Under the pieces are notes generated by a model that saw only the letters and a program-made list of their open reading frames with translations, ran no database searches and was not told where the DNA came from. The position numbers and the translations under genes were made by a program. From Minisyncoccia bacterium (GTDB lineage: Bacteria > Patescibacteriota > Minisyncoccia > Phycocordibacterales > UBA1550), in contig JBAQCU010000020.1 in NCBI GenBank assembly GCA_049294435.1, positions 13,110-77,109 of the forward strand: 64,000 nt of DNA. Direction: 5' to 3'. Shown one piece after another: positions 4,780 through 62,052 of the stretch (positions are counted from its first letter, which is position 1; every line of letters begins with the position of its first letter).

Positions 4780-6021
4780 ATGAACAAGCTAATAACAAAA
4801 CTCCCTGACAAACCTGGTGTTTACATATTTCGCGGACCAAAGCGCGAGGTTTTTTATGTTGGAAAGGCGACATCGCTCAAAAGTCGCGTCGCTAGCTATT
4901 TTCGTAAAGACCTAATCGCGACTCGTGGGCCTATTCTAGTTGGGATGGTGGAGTCTGCGAAATCTGTGGATTTTATAGAAACAGATTCTGCCCTTGAGGC
5001 ACTAATTTCAGAAGCGCATCTCATCAAAAAACATCAACCAGTTTATAACACAAAGGAAAAAGATAACAAGAGTTTCAACTACGTGGTTATTACTAAAGAA
5101 GATTTTCCGCGCGTTATTACAATGCGTGGTCGCAACTTGGAAACCCGACATCCAAGTGAAATGCGTGGTCGCAACTTGGAAACCCGACATCCAAGTGAAA
5201 TAAAATATTATTTTGGGCCATTTCCACAAGGAAGCGTCTTGCGCGAAGCGCTAAATATCGTTCGGAAGATTTTTCCGTTTCGCGATAGGTGTAAGCCAGA
5301 GCCAAGTAAGCCGTGCTTCAACGCGCAAATAGGCCTTTGTCCAGGAGTGTGCGCTGGTACAGTATCAAAAGCAGAGTACGCGAAAACAATCCGTCGCATT
5401 AAACTTTTTTTTGAGGGTCACAAAAAAACACTTATCAGTGGGCTTAAACGCGATATGAAGCTATCTGCAAAAAATTTGAAGTTTGAGGAAGCGGGTCATA
5501 TTAAAAAAATGATTTTTGCGCTCAACCACATTCAAGACGTAGCTCTCCTAAAAGCAGAACTTACGAGGTCCGACCTCGTAAGGGATTTTCGCATTGAGGC
5601 TTATGATGTCGCGCATATCTCAGGAACAAATGTTGTTGGTGTAATGGTAGTAATTGAAGACGGCGAACCAAAGAAAAGTGACTACCGAAAATTCAAAATC
5701 AAAAACAGCGCCAATAACGACAATGCATCTTTGCTTGAGATGCTTGAGCGTCGTTTTAACCACCCCGAATGGTCAATGCCAAAACTCATTGTGGTAGATG
5801 GCGGTAAGGCTCAAGTAAACACTGCAGAGCGTGCGCTTAAAGAGTGGGGGATTCAAATCCCTGTAGTAGGTGTTGTAAAAGACGAGCACCATAAGCCAAA
5901 AATGTTGCTAGGTGACAAGACAGCCATCAAAGAACACGATAGGCAGATTCTTCTCGCCAACAACGAAGCCCATCGTTTCGCAGTGAGCTTCCATAGGCAA
6001 CTGAGGAGGAAATCTATTTAA
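4780..6021 (+). CDS. uvrC: Excinuclease ABC subunit C, short form: GIY-YIG, Cys-rich, UVR and RNase H-like endonuclease domains; no C-terminal HhH domain
   Basis: N-terminal GIY-YIG (GVYIFRG..FYVGKA). UVR-like segment (KFEEAGHIKKMIFAL). Endonuclease region (YDVAHISGTNVVG). Only 413 aa. Confidence 0.8.
   Translation: MNKLITKLPDKPGVYIFRGPKREVFYVGKATSLKSRVASYFRKDLIATRGPILVGMVESAKSVDFIETDSALEALISEAHLIKKHQPVYNTKEKDNKSFNYVVITKEDFPRVITMRGRNLETRHPSEMRGRNLETRHPSEIKYYFGPFPQGSVLREALNIVRKIFPFRDRCKPEPSKPCFNAQIGLCPGVCAGTVSKAEYAKTIRRIKLFFEGHKKTLISGLKRDMKLSAKNLKFEEAGHIKKMIFALNHIQDVALLKAELTRSDLVRDFRIEAYDVAHISGTNVVGVMVVIEDGEPKKSDYRKFKIKNSANNDNASLLEMLERRFNHPEWSMPKLIVVDGGKAQVNTAERALKEWGIQIPVVGVVKDEHHKPKMLLGDKTAIKEHDRQILLANNEAHRFAVSFHRQLRRKSI
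5122..5199 (+). repeat. Perfect 39 bp tandem duplication (2 x atgcgtggtcgcaacttggaaacccgacatccaagtgaa) in frame within uvrC; encodes MRGRNLETRHPSE twice
   Basis: Copies at 5122-5160 and 5161-5199 are identical and adjacent. Confidence 0.9.
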
Positions 6022-16127: not shown

Positions 16128-16153
16128 ATCACGCACACTGTGCGGGATTTTTA
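16128..16153 (+). terminator. Hairpin (ATCACGCACA-ctg-TGTGCGGGAT) followed by a TTTTT run
   Basis: Seen directly in sequence after ORF 15724-16101. Confidence 0.5.
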
Positions 16154-17803: not shown

Positions 17804-19615
17804 ATGAACCAAACCCTTACTGACCAAGTTTATGGCCAAGCCACGAATCAGCTGATTCGAAAAATCCTCGCGTATGCGCGCGCGCATAAAGTTATAAGCG
17901 CGATTGTTCTTGTTGTCGTTCTCTATCTTGGCTACACCGGATATAAATCACTCACGAGCACAGCTGGCGAAACGCGCTATGTGCTTTCGGTAGTGGAGAA
18001 GGGCGCAATGGTAACCTCAATCACGGGAAGCGGGCAGGTGTCGTCATTTAACCAGCTTGATCTCAAACCAAAAGCCTCGGGAGATGTGGTGTATGTCGGC
18101 GTGGTGAACGGTCAACAAGTGAAAGCGGGAACATTGGTGGCACAGCTCGACGCCACCGACGCGCAAAAATCCGTGCGTGACGCGCAGGTAAATCTCGACA
18201 GCACAAAGCTCTCTCTTGAGAAGATCTTACGACCTGCTGACACTCTCTCACTCATTCAAACAGAGAATGCGCTTGCGCAGGCATCCTCGTCTATATTAAA
18301 AGCATACGATGATGGTTTCAATTCGGTGTCAAATGCATTTCTTGATTTGCCGGTAATCATGGCTGGGACTGAAGACATTTTGCATAGCACCACGGTCGAT
18401 CGGGTTCAGGAAAATATATACGCATATACAGACCTAGTAAAAAGTTATGATGATAATGCTATTACCTACAGGGATGATGTTGCGACAAAGTATCAAACAG
18501 CGCGCGACATGTATGATAAAACGTTTGCGGAATATCGCTCGGCTACGCGTTCTTCGAGTCATGCTGAAATCGAGAATTATATCGCAAACGCATATATGAC
18601 AAGCAAGGATATTGCAGACTCGGTAAAAAGTATAAGTGACCTGTTGGGTTATATTAAAGATAAACTCACTGAACACAACAAGAGCATTCCTGCGATACTC
18701 ACGACGCACCAAAATCTTCTCGCGACATATATTAGCAAAACAAACTCCGCTCTCATCGATCTTTTGGGAATACAAACAACAATTACGACTTCAAAGTATA
18801 CAATTGCAGAAAAAACAGAGTCACTTCGCAAACTAAAAGCAGGAGCAGATGCTATTGATATTCAATCAACACAACTTTCACTTAAACAACGAGAAAACGC
18901 TCTCCTCGATGCACAAGCGAACCTCGCGCATTACTTTGTTCGCGCGCCGTTCGCTGGCACCATTGCAAAACTTAATGTGAAAAAAGGCGATCCAATATCG
19001 ACCGCGACTTCAGTGGCGACTTTGATTACGAAGCAGAAGATTGCCGAAATTTCGCTCAATGAAGTAGACGTAGCAAAAGTGAAAGTTGGACAGAAAGCAA
19101 CGCTTACCTTTGATGCTATTGATGGGCTCACTATTGCGGGTGACGTTGCCGAGATTGATACCATCGGCACTGTTAGTCAAGGCGTTGTGACGTACACGGT
19201 CACCATCACGCTTGAGACACAGGATGACCGCGTGAAATCTGGTATGAGCGTGAGCGCAGCGATAATCACCAACATGAAACAGGATGTGCTCATGGTTCCA
19301 AACAGCGCAGTGAAGGCACAAGGAGGCACACACTATGTTGAGCTATTCGATACACCCATGGTTGCAGTCTCTACTTCTACAAGTGGTACAAACGCTGGCG
19401 TTCCATCTACTATCCCACCGCGCCAGCAAGCTGTTGAGATTGGACTCTCCAATGATACGATGACGGAGATTGTGTCAGGGCTTAAGGGGGGAGATCAGGT
19501 AGTATCGCGCACTATTGTCGGCACAGGAACTAAGGCCGCCCAGGCACCAAGCATCTTTAGCGCGGCAGGAGTTCGCACTCCAGGCGCTAACACACGCACA
19601 ACAACAGGGCGCTAG
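17804..19615 (+). CDS. HlyD-family periplasmic adaptor (membrane fusion protein) with a long coiled-coil hairpin
   Basis: N-terminal TM helix, coiled coil, lipoyl/beta-barrel region (VRAPFAGTIAKLNVKKGD). Confidence 0.8.
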   Translation: MNQTLTDQVYGQATNQLIRKILAYARAHKVISAIVLVVVLYLGYTGYKSLTSTAGETRYVLSVVEKGAMVTSITGSGQVSSFNQLDLKPKASGDVVYVGVVNGQQVKAGTLVAQLDATDAQKSVRDAQVNLDSTKLSLEKILRPADTLSLIQTENALAQASSSILKAYDDGFNSVSNAFLDLPVIMAGTEDILHSTTVDRVQENIYAYTDLVKSYDDNAITYRDDVATKYQTARDMYDKTFAEYRSATRSSSHAEIENYIANAYMTSKDIADSVKSISDLLGYIKDKLTEHNKSIPAILTTHQNLLATYISKTNSALIDLLGIQTTITTSKYTIAEKTESLRKLKAGADAIDIQSTQLSLKQRENALLDAQANLAHYFVRAPFAGTIAKLNVKKGDPISTATSVATLITKQKIAEISLNEVDVAKVKVGQKATLTFDAIDGLTIAGDVAEIDTIGTVSQGVVTYTVTITLETQDDRVKSGMSVSAAIITNMKQDVLMVPNSAVKAQGGTHYVELFDTPMVAVSTSTSGTNAGVPSTIPPRQQAVEIGLSNDTMTEIVSGLKGGDQVVSRTIVGTGTKAAQAPSIFSAAGVRTPGANTRTTTGR

Positions 19616-44432: not shown

Positions 44433-46097
44433 TTACCCTTTCGCCTCAAGCTCAACATAAAAGCTTGAGCCATGACCTTCCCCTTTAGACTCAGCCCAAA
44501 TTCGTCCTTCGTGTTTCTTAATCACTTCTTTCGCCACATAAAGACCTAGGCCAGTTCCTTCTGTATATACTTTGTTTACACCCTCACCACGACTAAACTT
44601 TTTAAAAATTTTTTCAAGCGTCATTGAGTTCATCCCAATACCTGTGTCTGATAAACTAAAAATAATTTTTTTTCTGTCTGAACTTTTGGATAAGAGTAAG
44701 GATATTTCTCCATTTGGTGTGTATTTTATAGAATTATCTATGAGATTTGAAATAACTTGTCGCAATTTTCCACTATCTCCCACAGTAATAAACTGCTCAT
44801 TACCCGAAACGCCATCATCTATCATCACGTTAAAGACCAAACGTGCATGGAGAGCATTCTGCTCCATATCACTCGCGATGTCTGTGACTAGTTTTTTCAT
44901 ATCCACGTCGACAAATTTATAATTCATATCACCGCTTTCTATGCGTGAAATATCCATAAAATCAGAAATCACAACAACGAGATGTCCGCTTGAAACAGAT
45001 ATCTTTTCAAGCGCATCCATCACGGGATGAGAAAGCGGGCCAAAAGAACCCTCGATGAGCATTGATGCATAACCTTTAATAACGGTAAGCGGGTCACGCA
45101 AGTGGTGCGCCGCAATGGAGAGAAATTCTGATTTTTTCTTATCAAGGAGCTTCAAACGCTTTGATATTGCATCAAGATTATGAGAAAGACGTATAATCCT
45201 CTCTTCAGACTCTATCTCGCGCTTCACGCTTCTTGCTAAAAATGAACTGGACAAAATGATTAATAACGTGATTACTGTTCTAATAAACAAATCGTAGATA
45301 GAATTCGCGAAAAAGAGCTCGGTTATAAGAACAAGCGCAATAATAGAGATGAGCAACTCAATAGTAATAATTTTAATGTTAAAAGAATTGTACTTTATGA
45401 GAATAAATGAAGTTGCAAAAATAAGCAGGCTTACAGAAAAGTGTCCAATCCAAAACATACCATGCTGTCCAACAGTAAAAATCGGAGGCATGAATGACAT
45501 TACCATCGTTATTGCGCAGACAAAACCAACCACTGTAAGCATCTCGAAAATTGCAGTTTTAAGAATCCCGACACTTTCTTGATATTTTTTAACAAGCAAG
45601 AAAATAGCTGCTACAAGATACGTAAAAATATAAAAAATGTATATCAGGAATCCTTTACCTAAAACCATGCCATCAAGAGCTCCAGTGGGGGCCTCCTGAT
45701 AACTGACAATGAATGATGGGTACCAGTACAAAATACCGACTATTGCAAAATAGGGTACGAAAAAAGCAACAAATTTTTGAAACGAAATCTCACTATTTTC
45801 AATCGAAAATACATGCAAAAATATAAATAAAAATGGAGGCACGATGGCGGCGACTGCGTAGAGTGCCACGATTCCCATATAAACGCCAGATATACTGAAC
45901 GAGCCATCTAAAATAGCATAAACAAAACTACTCAAAAGATTTATAATCGCTAAAAAAAAGAAAATTCTGCTGTTGCGTTTTGCAAGATCCTGCCAAAATA
46001 TAACCCACGAGAGTACCACGATAAAAAGATTCCATATCACGAGTACGCACATCTCAATGGAAAGGTTACTGATAATATCAAGTAATGCTACTGGCAT
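44433..46097 (-). CDS. Sensor histidine kinase with an N-terminal multi-TM sensor, HisKA and HATPase_c domains
   Basis: H-box SIAAHHLRDPLTV; G-boxes DTGIGM, GTGLGL. Confidence 0.85.
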   Translation of the reverse strand: MPVALLDIISNLSIEMCVLVIWNLFIVVLSWVIFWQDLAKRNSRIFFFLAIINLLSSFVYAILDGSFSISGVYMGIVALYAVAAIVPPFLFIFLHVFSIENSEISFQKFVAFFVPYFAIVGILYWYPSFIVSYQEAPTGALDGMVLGKGFLIYIFYIFTYLVAAIFLLVKKYQESVGILKTAIFEMLTVVGFVCAITMVMSFMPPIFTVGQHGMFWIGHFSVSLLIFATSFILIKYNSFNIKIITIELLISIIALVLITELFFANSIYDLFIRTVITLLIILSSSFLARSVKREIESEERIIRLSHNLDAISKRLKLLDKKKSEFLSIAAHHLRDPLTVIKGYASMLIEGSFGPLSHPVMDALEKISVSSGHLVVVISDFMDISRIESGDMNYKFVDVDMKKLVTDIASDMEQNALHARLVFNVMIDDGVSGNEQFITVGDSGKLRQVISNLIDNSIKYTPNGEISLLLSKSSDRKKIIFSLSDTGIGMNSMTLEKIFKKFSRGEGVNKVYTEGTGLGLYVAKEVIKKHEGRIWAESKGEGHGSSFYVELEAKG

Positions 46098-46254
46098 AAT
46101 TCAATTATACCATACCAATCGCAAAAATTACCCACGATTTTGTTGAAAACTACTGCAGAGTTCTTTTTTCTTTCAACTCCAAATATACTGACTCCGAATT
46201 TGTGTCTTCGCACCTTTAGTATAAATTTTGATAAATTCACACTGCTTGCTAATA

Positions 46255-46432
46255 CCATCCCCAATTAACCTATGTACAATAATCCAAAAATTTTGGCTGC
46301 GACTTCGAATCAGCTGATTCGTGGCTCGGCCATAAAAGAAAATCCTTTGAAATATCCCGATATTCCTCATATTTTTCTCTTCGTCTCGCTCAAAATTTTG
46401 GAATTCTTTGCACAAGAGTTAATTGGGGATGG
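46255..46432. repeat. 178 bp element bounded by a perfect 15 bp inverted repeat (CCATCCCCAATTAAC / GTTAATTGGGGATGG) with TA dinucleotides outside both ends; contains the 16 bp palindrome CGAATCAGCTGATTCG (46306-46321) and two CAAAATTTTGG boxes
   Basis: Inverted repeats and palindromes read directly from the sequence in the intergenic region between the two histidine kinases. Confidence 0.45.
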
Positions 46433-46462
46433 TATAACATTCTTTGCTATACACCAAACACT

Positions 46463-48205
46463 TTATTGGCTTTCTGGTTCTCTCATCTTCGGCATCTCCA
46501 CTGTCACTATCGTGCCTTTGCCTAAACCTGCTGATTCAATGCGAAGTGTCCCGTGGTGCGCATCAATAATTTGTTGAGCGATGTACAAACCGATACCAGG
46601 CGTTCTTTTTTCCATCATTGTCGATTCTTCTTCCTCTCTCTTATTCTGCCCTCCCTCCTGTGGCATATGCTTCTCATTAAGTGCCGAATGTCCGCCTTCC
46701 TTCACTTTTAGATTAAATCTTTCAAAAATTGACGTTATCTGCTCCTGCTTCATTCCAATCCCTGTGTCAGAAACAGTGAGACGAACTTTTTTTGTTAAGC
46801 TGTCATCTGCAACAGTTACTCGCACACTACCCGACGCAGTAGTATATTTGATAGCATTTTCCAATATATGCTTCACTATTTGTTTAACTTTTTTCTCATC
46901 AATATAGGCAAGGAATTCTTTATCGCCTGTGGCAGTAAATGATACATCAACTTTTGCTTCAGCCACCTCATCCTTTAATTCTGTAATTGTACTTTCCACA
47001 AGATTTTTGAAATTTGTCATCTCAAAATTAAGCATTGTTCTCCCTTGTTCAATACGAGAAATCGTAAGAAGATCCTCTACTAGCGCGATAATCTTTTGAC
47101 TAGATTTATAGAGCTTTCCCATGGCATCTCGAGCAGAATCATTAATATGTCCAAAAGTTCCTTCAAGGATCATGGACGCATAGCCTTTAATGACTGTAAG
47201 AGGCGCGCGTAGCTGGTGCGAAGCAATAGACATGAACTCCGTCTTCTGCTCTTCAAGTACTCGTAATTTCTCATTCGCTACCTCCATTTCCTTCAATAAC
47301 CCAAAAATTCGTTCTCTGTTACTGATATCCTTGTAAATGCCACGAAGAAGCACTACGCTAAAGATAAAAATGAGTAAAGCCATTAATACGTTCAACATAA
47401 AATCCGTTTTTAAATACGAGGTAAATACATTAATAAACAAAAACAAGTTTAGCAACAAAACCGCTAATTCAACGAGAATAACTTTTATATCGAAAAGCTG
47501 GTGTTTGAATATAGCATATGAAATAATCAGTGGATAAAGAAACACCGTCAAATTCATATACGGATAAATATCAAAACCGTATACTGGGAGAAAATTAAAA
47601 GCTCCACCCGCAAAACTTACCGCCATACCAAAGAAGAAAAATTTAATCTTTTCTTTAATCAATCTATCTTTACTTTCTTTAAATCCTAGCCATAAAAGGA
47701 AATGACTGTATCCTGTTAGGCCAAAAAACATTATGGTAAATAGTGGGTAAAAAGGACCTGGTGGCGAATCATAATAAAACTGCCCAAAAACAAAACGCAT
47801 GTTGTCAATAAAGAGACCATCAGTAAAATTTGTTATCAAAAGTAACACGGAAACGGCATATAAAAATATCAAAATTTCTGTTTTCTTTTTTTCCAAAAAC
47901 TCATATACAAAATGCAAAAAGAATACAGGTATTAAAATTGCTCCTATATGCGCAATTTTCCACCAAAATGATGCTGTTTCTGGCGATGTTGAACCTCCAA
48001 CAAAATATATGCCCAGACCAAAAAGAAACACAGCAAAACAAAAAACAGCCCAAAGATAATGCAGTTTTTTCTTGCCAATAAATAACATCAGCAGAGTCAT
48101 CAAACCACTCGTAACAGCAATCAAAAAACCTGATAAACTGTAAAAGTTCATTCTTATGTTATATATTATAAATGAATTGCTGTCTACATCATTAAACATT
48201 ACCAT
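46463..48205 (-). CDS. Sensor histidine kinase (paralog of the upstream HK) with a multi-TM sensor and a C-terminal insert
   Basis: H-box SIASHQLRAPLTV; HATPase_c with TGIGM, and GIGLYIA after a Glu-rich insert. Confidence 0.85.
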   Translation of the reverse strand: MVMFNDVDSNSFIIYNIRMNFYSLSGFLIAVTSGLMTLLMLFIGKKKLHYLWAVFCFAVFLFGLGIYFVGGSTSPETASFWWKIAHIGAILIPVFFLHFVYEFLEKKKTEILIFLYAVSVLLLITNFTDGLFIDNMRFVFGQFYYDSPPGPFYPLFTIMFFGLTGYSHFLLWLGFKESKDRLIKEKIKFFFFGMAVSFAGGAFNFLPVYGFDIYPYMNLTVFLYPLIISYAIFKHQLFDIKVILVELAVLLLNLFLFINVFTSYLKTDFMLNVLMALLIFIFSVVLLRGIYKDISNRERIFGLLKEMEVANEKLRVLEEQKTEFMSIASHQLRAPLTVIKGYASMILEGTFGHINDSARDAMGKLYKSSQKIIALVEDLLTISRIEQGRTMLNFEMTNFKNLVESTITELKDEVAEAKVDVSFTATGDKEFLAYIDEKKVKQIVKHILENAIKYTTASGSVRVTVADDSLTKKVRLTVSDTGIGMKQEQITSIFERFNLKVKEGGHSALNEKHMPQEGGQNKREEEESTMMEKRTPGIGLYIAQQIIDAHHGTLRIESAGLGKGTIVTVEMPKMREPESQ

Positions 48206-56952: not shown

Positions 56953-57624
56953 TCAATCGGAAATGTCCGCTTGTTCCTTAAATATTATTTTCTTTCTGTA
57001 TGCCTTACAATAATTAATTGTAGAACAAATTTCCTTGAAAAGTAATTTTGATTCGTTTTCCTCATAATCATACTCCTCCTCAGACTTACCTTGGAATTTA
57101 TAGTGCAAAAAACTGCTCCTTTTTTCAGAAACCTTCTTAATTAAATTAAAATGTTTTCTGTTAAATTTAGGTAACTTCATAACATCAATTAACCAAGTAA
57201 ACTTACCCTCAAAAGAAACATATTTTAATAATTCCTTAAGCGTACTATTAGGAACATCATTTCTAATAGTCCATATTTGAATAATTTCGTTAATGAAGTG
57301 CTCAAAATACGTTGCCAGAAAAACGTATGCAAGGTTAAAATCATCTTCCTTAACAGATTGTTCAAAACTACTCAAAAGGGTATCTTGATGAATAATTACA
57401 AAATGAGAATGTTTACTTTTTGCACGTTGCCTAACCCATTTTCTGATTTTCTCATCTACCAATTTTTTATTAGAAAGATCAGCGACAACAAGAACTCCAC
57501 AAATTATTGCTGACTCAACAAGTTGAGGAAAAATTTCTTTCAACAATTGGTGACCTTCACTATCTACTGCCATTCCCTCTTTATTAGTTTGCTCCTTTAT
57601 CATAGTGCTATAAAATTTCATCAA
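56953..57624 (-). CDS. Hypothetical protein (223 aa), possibly HEPN-like (R-x4-H: EKRSSFLHY); last gene of the restriction-modification operon
   Basis: Overlaps the 3' end of the RM gene by 17 nt. The Rx4-6H motif alone is weak evidence. Confidence 0.4.
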   Translation of the reverse strand: MMKFYSTMIKEQTNKEGMAVDSEGHQLLKEIFPQLVESAIICGVLVVADLSNKKLVDEKIRKWVRQRAKSKHSHFVIIHQDTLLSSFEQSVKEDDFNLAYVFLATYFEHFINEIIQIWTIRNDVPNSTLKELLKYVSFEGKFTWLIDVMKLPKFNRKHFNLIKKVSEKRSSFLHYKFQGKSEEEYDYEENESKLLFKEICSTINYCKAYRKKIIFKEQADISD

Positions 57625-60600
57625 TCTCCCTCATTACATTATCTGTCTCCGTAAGTACCACAATAATCTTTTGATAGTGTTCGATGTCAGCGTTGGTGAG
57701 CGTGCGGGTTTTGCGGTCTTTCAGCCATTTTTGAGCGGGTTGGTATCCACCGATGTAGAAATTCCATGCGACTTCGGGAACATTGCCAAAATACTGGGTA
57801 TCGTTTATGTAGACATTTCCATTTTCATATTTTATTTTTTCCACAGTGTCACTCCCCGCTACAGGGTATGAAGTAATAAGATTGTTGCATTCGGATGCGG
57901 TCATCAAGTGTAGTTCACGGAGCTTAGTACCAAGAGGCACCAGCTTCCAAAATTCTTCCTTATTTTTTGGATATGGTACGCGTGGAAAATCTGTTTTTAA
58001 AAACTCGCTATATTTAGTGCGGTAGCTTGGTGAATATAGGTATGCATAAATATAGTCCAAAATATTTTCAGGAGTAATCCTAATATCACCGTCTTTTGTA
58101 TTATATTCAGCTACAGGATAATACACACTACCGACAGCTTCAGCAATTTTTCTTGAAATTACTAGATCGATGTTTGGAATTCTTGAAACTCTAATATTTC
58201 CCACCTCGCCAGCATGAAAACTACTGCCAACTTCTGGATAAAGATAGAGTGGAAATGATGCCCCGATTTCAGAAGTTTTATTTGAAACATAACTTGATTC
58301 AACGATATTGTCATGGACTAGAACATGTTGAAACCCCTCAATCTTCTGCTGCCTGCACAACATAAGTCCAATATTTTCCTTATTTATCAAATGTTGCATG
58401 ACGTCCCACCGTCCGCGTTCTACAAACTTCTTATCATAATAAATATATCTTGTATCAAATGGTCTATAATTTATCTTACAAACTTTGCCTTCTTCATAGT
58501 CAAAACTTTGATTATTTGCATAAGCAATAATATTTTTCTTGAGCAATTCCTTATCTTCCGAGATAACGATAGCATCTCGCCCTGTTACTATTCCTACGCT
58601 GGAGGTAGTAAATAATTCACTAACAGAAAAACCTTCACTGTATGCGCCCTTATTTTCTCCTTCCAGCTTCCAAACATCACATTCATCTGGCAGTTTCACC
58701 CACATCACTGTTTCTACACTGGCGATATCGAGCATCTGAAACTTGGCATCTCGTGTGCCATACATATCACTAACATGCACAGTCGCGAGCTTTTTATCTC
58801 TAATATTTAGGAACTTTTTAACTGCCAAAATTATAGACACACCTGACATGATATCAAAAACATTTTCATCTTTTGTTCCGTCTGGACTTATTTCCTTTTT
58901 ACGACTATTGCCGTGTAAGTCAACTACATAAATTTTATCGAATGTGTTTCTCAGATGCCAACGCATTCCGCGGAATGTTGGGTTGTCTATATAGCCATGT
59001 GCAGTAATCATCCCAACAATTCCCTCTCCGTTTTTCTCGATGAGACTCTCGGCAAAACGAATAAACTTAACGTAGTCGTCGTTAATCCATTTACTATTTC
59101 GCTCTTTTAATTTTTCTTTGCCCCCAATTTCAACCTTGTAAACATCATTGTCGGTGTAGTGAGGGTTCATTGATTCACCGCTGTACGGCGGATTCCCAAT
59201 CACACACATAATCGGATACTCGGACTTCACACGCGATGCATTTTTGCTTTCCTCGGCAATACTGTCCATAATTCCGAAAAGTGTATCCTGGGTTGAGTAG
59301 TCAATTGGTGCATCAAGGGTGTTGGTGAGATACACACCGAGGCGGGTATTGATATTATCTGCACCGGTATCGTGAAGTGTCATGCCGAGTTTCAAGTGCG
59401 CGATGGTGTACGAAGCCATCATGAGCTCAAAACCATGCAGGCGTGGCAGGAGGTCGTTTTCTACATACGCAGGCCATCTCCCCTCTTGTCCTTTGAAATT
59501 TTCATGAATATGATTAATTACCTCATTGAGAAAAGTACCTGTCCCTGTGGCGACATCGAGTACCTGCACCTTGTGATATTCTTTTTGAACTTTTACCTCC
59601 TTACTTTTGTTGTTGATTTCTTTTTTCTCAATGATAACCTTGGTTGTATCGGTAAGACCTTTTTCAAGACCAAATTCACTTTTTAGCAGACTGTCGACTG
59701 CTCGCACAATAAACTGCACTACTGGTCGCGGTGTATAGAAAACACCCATTTCCATTTTTTTCTTTGAGTCGTACTCCTTCAAAAAATCTTCGTAGAAGTG
59801 AATGACTGGATCCTTGTCGTCTTTTTCTTTTTGATAGAAATCACGCAGTATTTTTTCTACATCGGCGTGAGTAAAAACTTCACAAAGCTCGTCGACAATA
59901 AATCTCAATTTATCAGGAAAGGATGTACCTGCAATGTGGTCAAAAAATGAGCGTAGAAACGGATTAGTTTTAGGAACAAGCTCGCGCGCTTCGGTACGAG
60001 AAAAATCTTCGGGAGTTGTGTCGTTATAACGTGCTGCAAAAAGCCCATACACGAGAGTTTGTGCATACATATCGGCAAAAGATTCATCGTCAAGACCAGA
60101 AACAAGGTGCTCGCGAACCACATTACGCATTTTGAGCAAGTCAGCATATTTGTGCGAAGGATTCGCAAGCATTTCTCGCACATTGCCTCGAATACGCTGA
60201 GCCTTGCCGCCCATAATCTGAGCAAGATGTTTCCCGCGTTTAATAGGCTCCTTGTGAGACGAAGAAAAGTCTACAAGGGTTTTTGGAAGAAGTGAAAAAT
60301 TTTTAGGGAATGCAGTTATTGTGCGATTGGTTTTGTCGAAACTTGCAATAGCAACAGGCTCGCCGTATCTCTCACCATTGCGATAGAAACGAAATTCAAC
60401 GTAGTCAGTAAGCACAAGATTATCATAACCAAAGTAACGCTCCATTTGGTTACTTTTTTCTATTTTGTCGAGGCTGATGCCTATATCTTTTGCTTCAATG
60501 TAGAGAATGGGTACTCCATTTTTCGAAATAACAAAATCGGGCTTATTCCCATCATCATTTGTTGAATCGTGGTTGATTTGTGTTACCTTGCCATCAGCCT

Positions 60601-60727
60601 GAAAAATTTGTTTCAAGAGCAACTCAAAGTCAGTACGATAAATCATCTCTCTTCCGTTTGAAGCATCCAGACGGGCAAATTTTTGTGCGATATTCTTTAA
60701 ATATTCTTCCATAGTAATTATTGACAC
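57608..60727 (-). CDS. Type IIG/IIL restriction-modification enzyme, MmeI-like: N-terminal PD-ExK nuclease, gamma-class N6-adenine methyltransferase, C-terminal target-recognition domain
   Basis: N-terminus DFVISKNGVPILYIEAKD (D..EAK). MTase motif I VLDVATGTGTFL and motif IV IGNPPYSG. 1039 aa in a single chain. Confidence 0.8.
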   Translation of the reverse strand: MSIITMEEYLKNIAQKFARLDASNGREMIYRTDFELLLKQIFQADGKVTQINHDSTNDDGNKPDFVISKNGVPILYIEAKDIGISLDKIEKSNQMERYFGYDNLVLTDYVEFRFYRNGERYGEPVAIASFDKTNRTITAFPKNFSLLPKTLVDFSSSHKEPIKRGKHLAQIMGGKAQRIRGNVREMLANPSHKYADLLKMRNVVREHLVSGLDDESFADMYAQTLVYGLFAARYNDTTPEDFSRTEARELVPKTNPFLRSFFDHIAGTSFPDKLRFIVDELCEVFTHADVEKILRDFYQKEKDDKDPVIHFYEDFLKEYDSKKKMEMGVFYTPRPVVQFIVRAVDSLLKSEFGLEKGLTDTTKVIIEKKEINNKSKEVKVQKEYHKVQVLDVATGTGTFLNEVINHIHENFKGQEGRWPAYVENDLLPRLHGFELMMASYTIAHLKLGMTLHDTGADNINTRLGVYLTNTLDAPIDYSTQDTLFGIMDSIAEESKNASRVKSEYPIMCVIGNPPYSGESMNPHYTDNDVYKVEIGGKEKLKERNSKWINDDYVKFIRFAESLIEKNGEGIVGMITAHGYIDNPTFRGMRWHLRNTFDKIYVVDLHGNSRKKEISPDGTKDENVFDIMSGVSIILAVKKFLNIRDKKLATVHVSDMYGTRDAKFQMLDIASVETVMWVKLPDECDVWKLEGENKGAYSEGFSVSELFTTSSVGIVTGRDAIVISEDKELLKKNIIAYANNQSFDYEEGKVCKINYRPFDTRYIYYDKKFVERGRWDVMQHLINKENIGLMLCRQQKIEGFQHVLVHDNIVESSYVSNKTSEIGASFPLYLYPEVGSSFHAGEVGNIRVSRIPNIDLVISRKIAEAVGSVYYPVAEYNTKDGDIRITPENILDYIYAYLYSPSYRTKYSEFLKTDFPRVPYPKNKEEFWKLVPLGTKLRELHLMTASECNNLITSYPVAGSDTVEKIKYENGNVYINDTQYFGNVPEVAWNFYIGGYQPAQKWLKDRKTRTLTNADIEHYQKIIVVLTETDNVMREIDEIL

Positions 60728-60734
60728 TATAAAT

Positions 60735-61802
60735 TTAAATCCTCACATACCTCGTACCGCGTCCGCGACCGATACGCCTTATTTTCTTGAGTTCAAGGAG
60801 CCTTTCGACTGATTGTCGAACTGTGCTGAGTGCAATGCCTGTTTTTCCTACTATTTCAGCAACACCCGTTTCGTCTACGCTTGAGATGTACTTCCATACC
60901 GCAAACTGTTTTGGGGAAAGCGTATCTTCAATGTGTTCTTCTTTAAGAAATATGAGTGCTTTTGTTGCCTGTTCTTTGACAACACCGAGAAAGAAGTTGA
61001 GCCATGGAGCAATCGTGTCGTGTTCTGTTCCAAATGTCTCTTGTGATTTTATAAGTGCGACATAGTATTCGTCTTTGCGTCGTTCGACGATTTGCTCATG
61101 AGAAACATACTGCACAAACTGGTATTCAGATCGGAGTAAAAGCAAGTTAGTCATAACGCGCGAAAGACGCCCGTTGCCGTCTTCGAATGGGTGAATTTTT
61201 AAAAATTCAACAAGGAAGTTGGCGATTACAAGCAAAGGATGGAACCGTCGGTCTATAAGTGCGTCGTATGTCCAGTCGACAAGCTCGGTCATTTCTCTAG
61301 GAGCGCGCCATGCTGGAGTTGTTTCAAAAATTACTTTTGCTATAGATTTTCCATCAGGCGCAAGTATGCCGACGGTGTTTTCAATTTTTTTGTACTTGCC
61401 TTTGTGGAGTTTATCTTTGTCAGAATATTTGAGAAGCTCGTTGTGTAGCGAGCCAATCACCCCTTCACGGAGTGGAAGCGTCTGATAACTATCAAAGACA
61501 TTTTGAAGCACTTCAAGGTAGCCCTGCACTTCTTGATAGTCGCGCTCGGCAAGCTTCGATGCCGTGAGTCCCTGCATGACTTTCTCCACTTCTTCGTCGG
61601 AGAGTTTTGACCCCTCAATACGGGTCGATGCACCAGCAGAGGTAACAAGCACCGAGCGTTTGAGGCTGGTAATTGCTTGTGGAGTCATCCGTAGCCCACC
61701 TTTGAACTCCCCTCTCATGCCGTCAATTTCAGCAACAAGAGATAGTATATGAGGCGCGGGCGCTTGAAGCCTGTGATCAAATTTTGTCTTATTTTCGTCC
61801 AT
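60735..61802 (-). CDS. Fic-family protein, class II (N-terminal inhibitory helix with S-x3-E-G) and a C-terminal winged HTH
   Basis: Fic motif HPFEDGNGRLSR; inhibitory motif ASTRIEGS; C-terminal LSTVRQSVERLLELKKIRRIGRGRGTRYV. Its stop lies 7 nt before the RM start. Confidence 0.85.
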   Translation of the reverse strand: MDENKTKFDHRLQAPAPHILSLVAEIDGMRGEFKGGLRMTPQAITSLKRSVLVTSAGASTRIEGSKLSDEEVEKVMQGLTASKLAERDYQEVQGYLEVLQNVFDSYQTLPLREGVIGSLHNELLKYSDKDKLHKGKYKKIENTVGILAPDGKSIAKVIFETTPAWRAPREMTELVDWTYDALIDRRFHPLLVIANFLVEFLKIHPFEDGNGRLSRVMTNLLLLRSEYQFVQYVSHEQIVERRKDEYYVALIKSQETFGTEHDTIAPWLNFFLGVVKEQATKALIFLKEEHIEDTLSPKQFAVWKYISSVDETGVAEIVGKTGIALSTVRQSVERLLELKKIRRIGRGRGTRYVRI

Positions 61803-61873: not shown

Positions 61874-62000
61874 ACCCCTCACACCTATAGAAAAATTCTA
61901 GAAGACCAGAGTCATTGCGAGTAGATAGCGTCCAAGACGTGAACTTGCTAGTTCAGAAACAATCCATGAGTCCTGGATTGCCACGTCGGAGTACCGACTC
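61874..62000. repeat. Family 2 element, copy c (partial or rearranged): left end GTAACCCCTCACACC is identical to copy a; inner core (TCATTGCGAG..CTGGATTGCCACGTCGG..GACTCGCAAAGACGG) is homologous to copy b; no matching right terminal repeat
   Basis: Read from sequence. Confidence 0.45.
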
Positions 62001-62052
62001 GCAAAGACGGAAAACTAGAGTTTCGTAATTCAAAGTTTATGAGATAGAAGAA

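Follow-up and report, generated by a model that had tools for sequence, protein, structure and literature searches.

A probable REP-like palindromic insertion element shared by two loci of a Minisyncoccia contig and dispersed in genomes of the Candidate Phyla Radiation

Results

Two kinases, an exporter cluster and a shared palindrome

The DNA analysed here (hereafter the window) is a 64,000-nt stretch of a Minisyncoccia contig, in which a spacer at 46098-46462 separates two histidine kinase (HK) genes of the same strand: HK2 (46463..48205, minus strand), a 7TM histidine kinase with the Pfam domains HisKA_7TM, HisKA and HATPase_c, and HK1 (44433..46097, minus strand), with HisKA and HATPase_c. 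At another locus, a gene for a HlyD-family periplasmic adaptor (17804..19615, plus strand; YknX-like, with Pfam HlyD_3 and HlyD_D23 and with orthologous loci in relatives) stands in the order extracytoplasmic function (ECF) sigma factor, two small open reading frames (ORFs), HlyD adaptor, ATP-binding cassette (ABC) ATPase and MacB-like permease. In the window, Pfam was applied to these three proteins only, the two kinases and the adaptor, and the other window ORFs were judged by eye. The two loci share a 16-nt palindrome, CGAATCAGCTGATTCG, and this paper concerns the miniature two-hairpin element of which the palindrome is one part (the mini-element), together with the larger hairpin of the kinase spacer in which one of its copies is nested (the host element).

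As a preliminary description of this DNA had stated, the palindrome is found twice in the window, with exact copies at 17844-17859 and 46306-46321 only; a third copy is missing from the window even when up to two mismatches are allowed (shuffle expectation 0.01). Its offset in the adaptor gene is 40 nt into the ORF and not the 44 bp reported there. The repeat common to both loci is, in fact, larger than the 16-mer, as 33 nt at 17829-17861 on the plus strand match the reverse complement of 46304-46336 with 32 of 33 positions identical (BLAST E 8e-11; TTTATGGCC[A/G]AGCCACGAATCAGCTGATTCGAA), the two copies thus lying in inverted orientation and having a longest perfect run of 23 nt in common. We built a covariance model (R1) of the two-hairpin module and ran it on loci from the Candidate Phyla Radiation (CPR), on the window with filters off, and on other bacteria. 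In the window, it places the copy at the 5' end of the adaptor gene (W1) at 17826..17862 on the plus strand with 62 bits, and the copy in the kinase spacer (W2), made of tag, hairpin A and hairpin B, at 46303..46339 on the minus strand with 56.1 bits. The palindrome is hairpin B of both copies (17844..17859 in W1 by exact-match scan; 46306..46321 in W2, C-GAATC-AGCT-GATTC-G, by the same scan and the covariation test described below), while W2 has its hairpin A (minus strand, U-GGC-CGA-GCC-A) at 46322..46332 according to the comparison of metagenomic modules and the covariation test.

Occupied and empty sites

W1 is translated as VYGQATNQLIR. When 120 listed HlyD homologues, including the window protein, were compared, this peptide was seen in the window protein and in none of the other 119, and the closest of the listed homologues (74-87% identity) read MNQTITERIRKILAY... 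at the same site. In a DNA alignment with two empty orthologous sites from close relatives (L162 and L163), the difference is a clean gap of 27 nt, ACTGAACGA|ATTCGAAA, which defines a net insert at 17828..17854 on the plus strand (GTTTATGGCCAAGCCACGAATCAGCTG). Judged from these alignments, W1 is a recent in-frame insertion of 27 nt, through which the adaptor has gained 9 residues in its cytoplasmic N-terminus.

Comparable differences separate filled from empty sites elsewhere: 24 nt in uvrC, 27 nt in the 5' region of uvrA and, in one loop of the RluA family, 24 nt for a first type of insertion and about 30-33 nt for a second (the latter is our own reading, as the aligner misplaced the region). 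No target-site duplication was seen at the filled and empty sites compared. (T)TCGAA is frequent as the right flank; at W1, the empty site has ACGAATTCGAAA even without the insert. Within the RluA family, 115 of the 121 aligned sequences are without an insert, the two insertion types in the same loop are independent, and degenerate versions of the insert exist (peptides GQALESADSD and VYGKATNHLIH; P0244 and P0259 are degenerate). Such patchy presence, together with the degenerate versions, indicates that copies are gained sporadically and then decay.

Logan short-read contigs (SRR28062858) matching the window at 100% identity have ends at 16137, 17854, 18941, 46279, 46408 and 49530. Three of these ends fall at hairpin or palindrome positions: 46279 and 46408 are where the arms of the spacer inverted repeat end on their inner side, and 17854 is the last base of the W1 insert. 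The breaks at these positions reflect either hairpin-related loss of coverage or polymorphism in the population.

Dispersal in CPR metagenomes

Metagenome contigs from JGI and ENA were scanned with the exact pattern GGCCRAGCC-N(2-20)-GAATCAGCTGATTC, which by itself fixes most of hairpin B. Matches were found on 69 contigs, mainly from groundwater and sediment, and the genes examined on them were typical of CPR/Parcubacteria. After the copies had been oriented, their flanks proved unrelated, and what remained in common was a conserved core of about 33 nt, GTYTAN-GGCCRAGCC-NN-GAATCAGCTGATTC-G. The module was found in more than 60 unrelated contexts and showed no association with kinases or exporters. 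Seven contigs of similar assembly coverage (about 280 kb), which may belong to one genome, have only the core in common and hold at least seven copies. The density of the element is about 1 per 30 kb. In unbiased sequence a few copies were seen per ~130 kb, which by extrapolation would amount to tens per genome.

Intergenic copies lie between atpB and atpE, tuf and rpsJ, and rplR and rpsE, as well as 3' of clpP, tsf and topA, and one copy is directly 5' of a uvrA start codon. Other copies are inserted in frame into coding sequences, with hosts confirmed by Pfam in the mobile loop of Cpn10 (groES), an RluA-family pseudouridine synthase, the N-terminus of UvrC, MurB, the N-terminus of S5 (rpsE), Fe/Mn-SOD and DnaG; by eye, in-frame copies were also spotted in IleRS, FtsK, GyrB and, within its ATP-lid loop, an HK2 orthologue. 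Of its six reading frames the element has four that are open (GQAxNQLIR, PSxESADS, ESADSxLG and NQLIxGLA), and the coding copies use only those. One further copy lies inside a class-A RNase P RNA gene (L150:313-799, the same region as L159), which measures 487 nt compared with the 367-nt model; the insertion there is made of the mini-element plus arms rich in AAAGT/ACTTT. In L093, L108, L114, L124, L137, L146 and L150, all of one lineage, the mini-element is flanked by arms in which a short unit is repeated in tandem, (A)AAGTNN in the 5' arm and NNACTTT in the 3' arm (e.g. GACTTTATA repeats), and these arms pair with each other.

Copies are mostly singletons, with one clear inverted doublet in L097 (4914-4950 on the plus strand and 4979-5015 on the minus strand). 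No orientation bias with respect to transcription was seen, as the upstream gene was on the same strand in 24 cases and on the opposite strand in 27, with 28 and 18 for the downstream gene, and across 61 copies the two strands did not differ in fold energy; the idea of an RNA acting from the sense strand was rejected on both grounds. A replication-polar motif (Ter, KOPS or Chi-like) was also rejected, since only 28 of 49 loci have the motif on the G-rich strand, and so was a solo CRISPR repeat, in view of the solitary copies and the lack of arrays.

Neither the full module nor the core of the host element had a match in viral contigs; five 17-mer matches in them were judged to be at chance level, none having hairpin A. 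Rfam returned no family for the region, whether at gathering thresholds over the whole window or in E-value mode over 46150-46480 and 20 loci and, apart from a match to RNase P RNA among those 20 loci, the runs produced the generic noise of long hairpins. A full-text literature search for the sequence of the element gave no match, and keyword searches on CPR repeats and RNA motifs yielded nothing specific.

Anatomy and stem covariation

The full unit of about 33-37 nt, for net inserts of 24-33 nt, consists of an unpaired 5' tag, GTYTAY, followed by hairpin A (N-GGC-[CRA]-GCC-N'), a linker of 0-1 nt and hairpin B (N-GAATC-[AGCT]-GATTC-N'). In an alignment of 62 sequences, 55 of them distinct, the pairing of the two hairpins holds in 99.1% of cells, and double changes affect three of the four pairs of hairpin A as well as the closing pair of hairpin B. 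Hairpin A is closed by U-A in 27 cases, C-G in 19 and G-C in 5, while in its two inner pairs G-C is replaced by U-A eight times and by A-U once; hairpin B is closed by C-G (47), U-A (4), U-G (2) or A-U (1). None of 500 shuffles reached the observed covariation score, which collapsed in slid controls. Changes that preserve pairing in both stems point to a folded nucleic acid rather than to independently read half-sites of an operator.

R1 also recovered diverged members, with hairpin B stems GAATT/AATTC, GACTC/GAGTC, GAACT/AGTTC and GAACC/GGTTC and with GTCCAAGAC or ATCCAAGAT as hairpin A. Scores were 30-62 bits in CPR loci, against a best score of 21.7 bits in 0.84 Mb of DNA from unrelated phyla used as a negative control, whose loci had been returned by generic peptide patterns of the histidine kinase catalytic domain. 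Superficial letter matches to small ribozymes (hammerhead, twister), noticed by eye, were set aside as Rfam gave no match for them.

The host element of the kinase spacer

Between the HK2 stop codon and the HK1 promoter lies a hairpin that resembles a MITE (a miniature transposable element with inverted repeats), at 46252..46435, identified by its extended inverted repeat, its fold z-scores and its homologues at unrelated loci. Its length is about 157 nt, or 184 nt when the nested insert is counted. The perfect 15-nt inverted repeat of the preliminary description is indeed there (CCATCCCCAATTAAC at 46255-46269 and GTTAATTGGGGATGG at 46418-46432; shuffle expectation 0.06), and TA stands directly outside both arms of the 15-mer. 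Complementarity, however, continues through these TA dinucleotides (ATACC...GGTAT) and then, imperfectly, to arms of about 44 nt: a left arm at 46252..46295, holding the first 15-mer and the box CCAAAAATTTTGG, and a right arm at 46391..46435, holding the second 15-mer and the box CAAAATTTTGG. What had been described as two CAAAATTTTGG boxes is simply the inner part of these arms, and only AAAATTTTGG is common to both. A 198-nt segment forms a hairpin of exceptional stability, with -78.2 kcal/mol (z -9.2) on the minus strand and with -60.9 kcal/mol (z -7.6) on the plus strand.

Three homologues of about 160 nt with the same termini were found in other genomes, between pilM and a pilN-like gene (L117:2606-2768), between recA and efp (L138:13030-13194) and between znuB-like and znuC-like genes (L135:3686-3845), these neighbours being named by eye from translations. 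All three align collinearly with the window element but lack 28 nt exactly at the site of the mini-element. The 16-mer is missing from them, which makes it a secondary insertion in the window copy, and the W2 insert of about 28 nt, within about 46304-46335 and with ambiguous boundaries, sits in an internal loop of the host hairpin. The consensus of the four copies is a three-helix hairpin of 45 pairs, 15 of which show compensatory changes, and in every copy the same strand of the element gives the better fold, by 4.6-11 kcal/mol, irrespective of how the host genes are oriented. From these comparisons, the spacer segment is an older, MITE-like hairpin repeat, unrelated to the mini-element, that later received one.

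The homologues at three unrelated loci uphold in part the view of a MITE-like element bounded by inverted repeats that the preliminary description had put forward. TA adjoins the 15-mer in three of the four copies (L135 has AG...CT) and may equally be part of the inverted repeat itself, whose complementarity runs through it; the four copies occupy four different contexts in four genomes, with one copy seen per sampled genome; and neither the window, the collected loci nor the viral contigs yielded an autonomous partner, with a DDE transposase and terminal inverted repeats that match. An attC identity of the outer inverted repeat was dismissed by inspection, as AATTAAC/GTTAATT is unlike RYYYAAC/GTTRRRY, and two ORFs of 80 and 101 aa over the spacer were dismissed as read-throughs of the repeats and not genes.

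Neighbourhood of the copies

HK1 is annotated from a Minisyncoccia (Patescibacteria/CPR) metagenome-assembled genome, and its nearest relatives, in Candidatus Yonathbacteria and other Parcubacteria, have only about 69% amino-acid identity to it. The 53 nt 5' of HK1 (window 46098-46160, minus strand) are 83% identical to those of the Yonathbacteria orthologue (L086:9943-9995), and an extended -10 element, TGGTATAAT, lies only about 7 nt from the HK1 ATG; to judge by these features HK1 is probably transcribed from a promoter of its own, into an mRNA that is almost leaderless. In relatives, the spacer between HK2 and HK1 is a hotspot of indels and insertions: L083 has a PemK toxin-antitoxin pair there, L084 about 4 kb with an acetyltransferase gene, a PIN gene and a DUF5674 gene, and L086 a gene for 152 aa on the opposite strand and a strong bidirectional terminator. 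W2 is missing from this spacer in L083 and L084, and L086 has an independent long variant, with a related motif 35 nt past the HK2 stop, GGCCGAGCC-GT-GAATCTACTGATTC-A-GAATCAGCTGATTCGAAAGTCG, which was the first sign of a recurring unit larger than the palindrome. The ATP-lid region of HK2 itself carries a low-complexity insertion, KEGGHSALNEKHMPQEGGQNKREEEESTMMEK, and in the same loop the L133 orthologue has a mini-element (LWPSHESADS).

A third, diverged member of the family, GC-GTCCAAGAC-GT-GAACTTGCTAGTTC-AGAA, lies in the Fic-rpsI spacer at 61922..61958 on the plus strand (19.9 bits with R1, with compensatory stem variants). It is inside a larger, partial repeat (window 61900-62040), the right end of which (AGAGTTTCGTAATTCAAAG, at about 62019-62037) matches the end of a composite hairpin of ~200 nt in L097 (around 4860-5060), the same hairpin that holds the inverted doublet of mini-elements. 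Beside this third copy, at 57608-61802, an ORF of 1039 aa that by eye resembles a fused restriction/methyltransferase enzyme adjoins a Fic-like gene, and the two may form a small defence or mobile islet.

On the plus strand the GC skew of the window flips from positive to negative at about 26-38 kb, and the genes are oriented convergently; the replication terminus probably falls within the window. W1 and W2 flank this switch and are inverted relative to each other.

Discussion

We consider it probable that the 16-mer is hairpin B of a miniature palindromic insertion element, similar to REPs (repetitive extragenic palindromes), that is dispersed in Parcubacteria/Minisyncoccia genomes of the CPR. 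As both loci carry the same mobile repeat, they would be linked by that alone and not by co-regulation. The element would land wherever it is tolerated, whether in spacers, in protein loops and N-termini through its stop-free frames, in peripheral helices of structural RNAs, or in other repeats. It may spread as a folded single strand and without target-site duplication, the agent being either a trans-acting enzyme of the HUH type, such as a REP-associated tyrosine transposase (RAYT), or template switching guided by microhomology. The lack of target duplication, the dependence on hairpins and the conserved unpaired tag would resemble the single-strand chemistry of HUH/Y1 enzymes (IS200/IS605, REP-RAYT), and the variable boundaries and the microhomology of the right flank would fit template switching equally well. 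Once inserted, a copy would have no role beyond that of a generic hairpin, in DNA or mRNA, and would then decay.

Several of our results weigh against this interpretation. The tag, GTYTAY (G-T-Y-T-A-N by column counts), fits neither of the two tags known for REPs, GTAG and CGTC, and the element has two different hairpins in tandem where a classical REP has one. The boundaries of the inserts are not fixed (24-33 nt), which suits imprecise copying better than a precise transposase. Among the window ORFs, whose translations were judged by eye, no Y1/HUH gene is evident, and the RAYT-like gene of a relative (L086) is surrounded by inverted repeats of another kind. That copies from different species are nearly identical stems in part from the exact-pattern search, and could still reflect selection for a function in the host. 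Lastly, R1 found two strong copies and one diverged copy in the window, and the copy number of this genome is thus known for 64 kb alone.

The RAYT-like gene of L086 encodes a Y1_Tnp protein of 225 aa (PF01797), is preceded by a direct duplication of ~62 nt, and is bracketed by the inverted repeats GGGGACAGCCACCATT / AATGGTGGCTGTCCCC (stretches concerned: L086:1780-1925 and 2600-2640); it looks like a separate system of REPs or terminal inverted repeats in Yonathbacteria. Some RAYTs are known to be flanked by unrelated terminal inverted repeats (PMC3733652), so that, in spite of the mismatch in L086, the relationship may be one in trans.

Comparison with REPs, which are mobilised by Y1 transposases of the RAYT type, is instructive on both sides. 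These are palindromes of 20-40 bp with an unpaired GTAG or CGTC tag, stem bases that are alternative and complementary according to the sub-family, and short TY or CMA loops; they occur as singletons and dimers, mainly between unidirectional or convergent genes, and their intragenic copies are found, often at the N-terminus, in uvrA/B/C and in genes for polymerases, pseudouridine synthases and tRNA synthetases (PMC3733652). The CPR element is alike in its size, in having an unpaired tag followed by a stem-loop, in its sub-families with complementary stems, in a CMA-like loop (CRA), in its singletons, with one clear inverted doublet (the REPIN arrangement) in L097, and in the lack of target duplication. 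The copies sampled are mostly intergenic, between unidirectional or convergent genes, and those within genes affect uvrA, uvrC, pseudouridine synthase, tRNA synthetase and replication genes, often at their N-termini. In addition to the differences of tag and hairpin number given above, Patescibacteria/CPR are outside the 8 phyla surveyed for REPs (PMC3733652). The CPR element also has a low density, and a RAYT flanked by it, after the REP pattern of a single-copy RAYT gene (PF01797) between the same repeats, was not found, the sole RAYT-like gene seen having GGGGACAGCCACCATT repeats. We conclude that the element works like a REP and yet falls outside the defined REP superfamilies, given that it has neither their tag consensus nor a demonstrable RAYT association.

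Rickettsia palindromic elements (RPEs) are selfish repeats that insert in frame into essential coding genes and into structural RNA genes, are translated, and decay, the classical RPE-1 being about 100-150 bp long and restricted to Rickettsia. Our element resembles them in its in-frame coding insertions, its copy in an RNase P RNA gene and its reduced host genome, but is about 30 nt long and has Minisyncoccia/Parcubacteria as hosts, and the likeness drawn here is one of behaviour. RPEs are also mentioned in PMC3733652. The host element, for its part, recalls the ERIC, Correia/NEMIS and RUP families in its size (~157 nt, within a range of 100-200 nt), its long and imperfect terminal inverted repeats that form a hairpin, its position in transcribed operon spacers and its homologous copies at unrelated loci; the TA at both ends is shared with Correia and IS630-type elements. 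The preference of all its copies for folding on the same strand, in contrast, is not a stated property of ERIC, Correia/NEMIS or RUP.

Among the other explanations, the one that we take most seriously, while still regarding it as unlikely, is that the module is a domesticated cis-element, an RNA or DNA signal for a conserved CPR factor (an mRNA stabiliser or processing site within operons, or a site for a nucleoid protein), that purifying selection maintains it, and that its mobility is incidental. The core is almost invariant over many species, with conserved CRA and AGCU loops, and the loop of hairpin B, being self-complementary, reads alike on either transcript strand; many copies lie between co-directional operon genes, and many lie within long stems specific to their locus, with more enclosing pairs than in controls (P = 0.008). 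In L107, moreover, the palindrome alone caps a terminator-like hairpin beside what appears, by eye, to be the 3' end of a tRNA gene. Against this reading, the copies show no preference for one direction relative to transcription and no difference in fold energy between strands, they are patchy among orthologues and decay in some of them (P0244, P0259), the apparent conservation is inflated by the exact-pattern search, and no Rfam family matches. A role as a chromosome-level signal, either a DNA-uptake sequence or an organisation site of the parS, Noc or SlmA type, is most improbable in our opinion. The palindrome has the 16-bp size of a parS-like site, is orientation-independent and tolerated in coding DNA, and would reach tens of copies per genome by extrapolation. 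Its copies, however, arise as discrete insertions of 24-33 nt and not by point mutations, the asymmetric tag and hairpin A are conserved beside the palindrome and the stems covary, the density is far below that of known uptake signals, and copies lie beside the probable terminus.

The preliminary description had interpreted the palindrome as the operator of a dimeric transcription factor, for instance an orphan response regulator, with the kinase pair and the ECF-sigma/ABC-exporter cluster under its joint control. A perfect palindrome of 16 bp with exactly two copies in 64 kb invites this proposal, as does the absence of a response regulator beside either kinase, on which the ORF list of the window agrees; members in L132, L106 and L094 also lie 4-12 nt upstream of a TTGACA-like box. 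W1, though, is 40 nt inside a coding sequence, in an insertion missing from the other listed homologues, and W2 was inserted into a mobile hairpin and is some 210 nt upstream of the HK1 start; HK1 seems to have its own conserved promoter by the ATG. Moreover, the conserved unit is 33 nt long and asymmetric, its symmetric positions covary in a way that keeps base pairing, and we found more than 60 copies with no functional theme, including sites deep in coding sequences and on both strands, an outcome that the preliminary description had itself named as grounds for refutation. This link between the two loci is therefore not supported, and we give the operator very little credence. Recombination is no more plausible as an explanation, whether the inverted 33-nt copies are supposed to invert the 28.5-kb segment between them, swapping the HlyD N-terminus and promoter in frame, or the 128-nt interior of the spacer hairpin to be an invertible switch upstream of HK1. 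The copies are inverted and flank the GC-skew switch; a minus-strand ORF of the spacer (MRNIGIFQRIFFYGRATNQLIR...) is in the frame of HlyD across the repeat; the hairpin contains, on its plus strand, a sigma-70-like site directed away from HK1; and the Logan contigs end at the inner ends of the 28-nt inverted-repeat arms (46279 and 46408) and at 17854. On the other hand, we saw no recombinase gene when the window was inspected by eye, the great majority of family members are solitary, and the perfect stretch between W1 and W2 does not exceed 23 nt. If the arms flipped through their perfect 18-nt core, contigs should by our reasoning break at 46270 and not at 46280, and the other ends of the same contigs look random, which makes hairpin-related loss of coverage an adequate explanation for the breaks.

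A more speculative extension of the insertion-element interpretation, to which we assign a low likelihood, is that the module is the cis partner of a vertically inherited symbiosis of the REPIN-RAYT kind, or of a hairpin-binding factor, across the Parcubacteria. If so, that factor would keep the master copies invariant, the element would go on reshaping the loops and N-termini of proteins, RNase P RNA and operon spacers in these minimal genomes, and its orientation-independent RNA hairpins, with their self-complementary AGCU loop, could serve in mRNA processing or stability.

With no match in Rfam or to its sequence in the literature, the element appears to be a REP-like family previously undescribed in the CPR. 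Its interpretation as a mobile repeat replaces a tempting regulatory story, and may be of use in annotation by explaining spurious N-terminal extensions, odd loops and contig breaks. The genomes concerned are tiny and gene-dense and yet carry in-frame insertions in chaperonin, repair, replication and ribosomal genes, as well as in RNase P RNA. The element could serve for strain typing, for the study of how far a minimal genome tolerates selfish DNA, and as a starting point in the search for an enzyme that moves hairpin DNA of about 30 nt.

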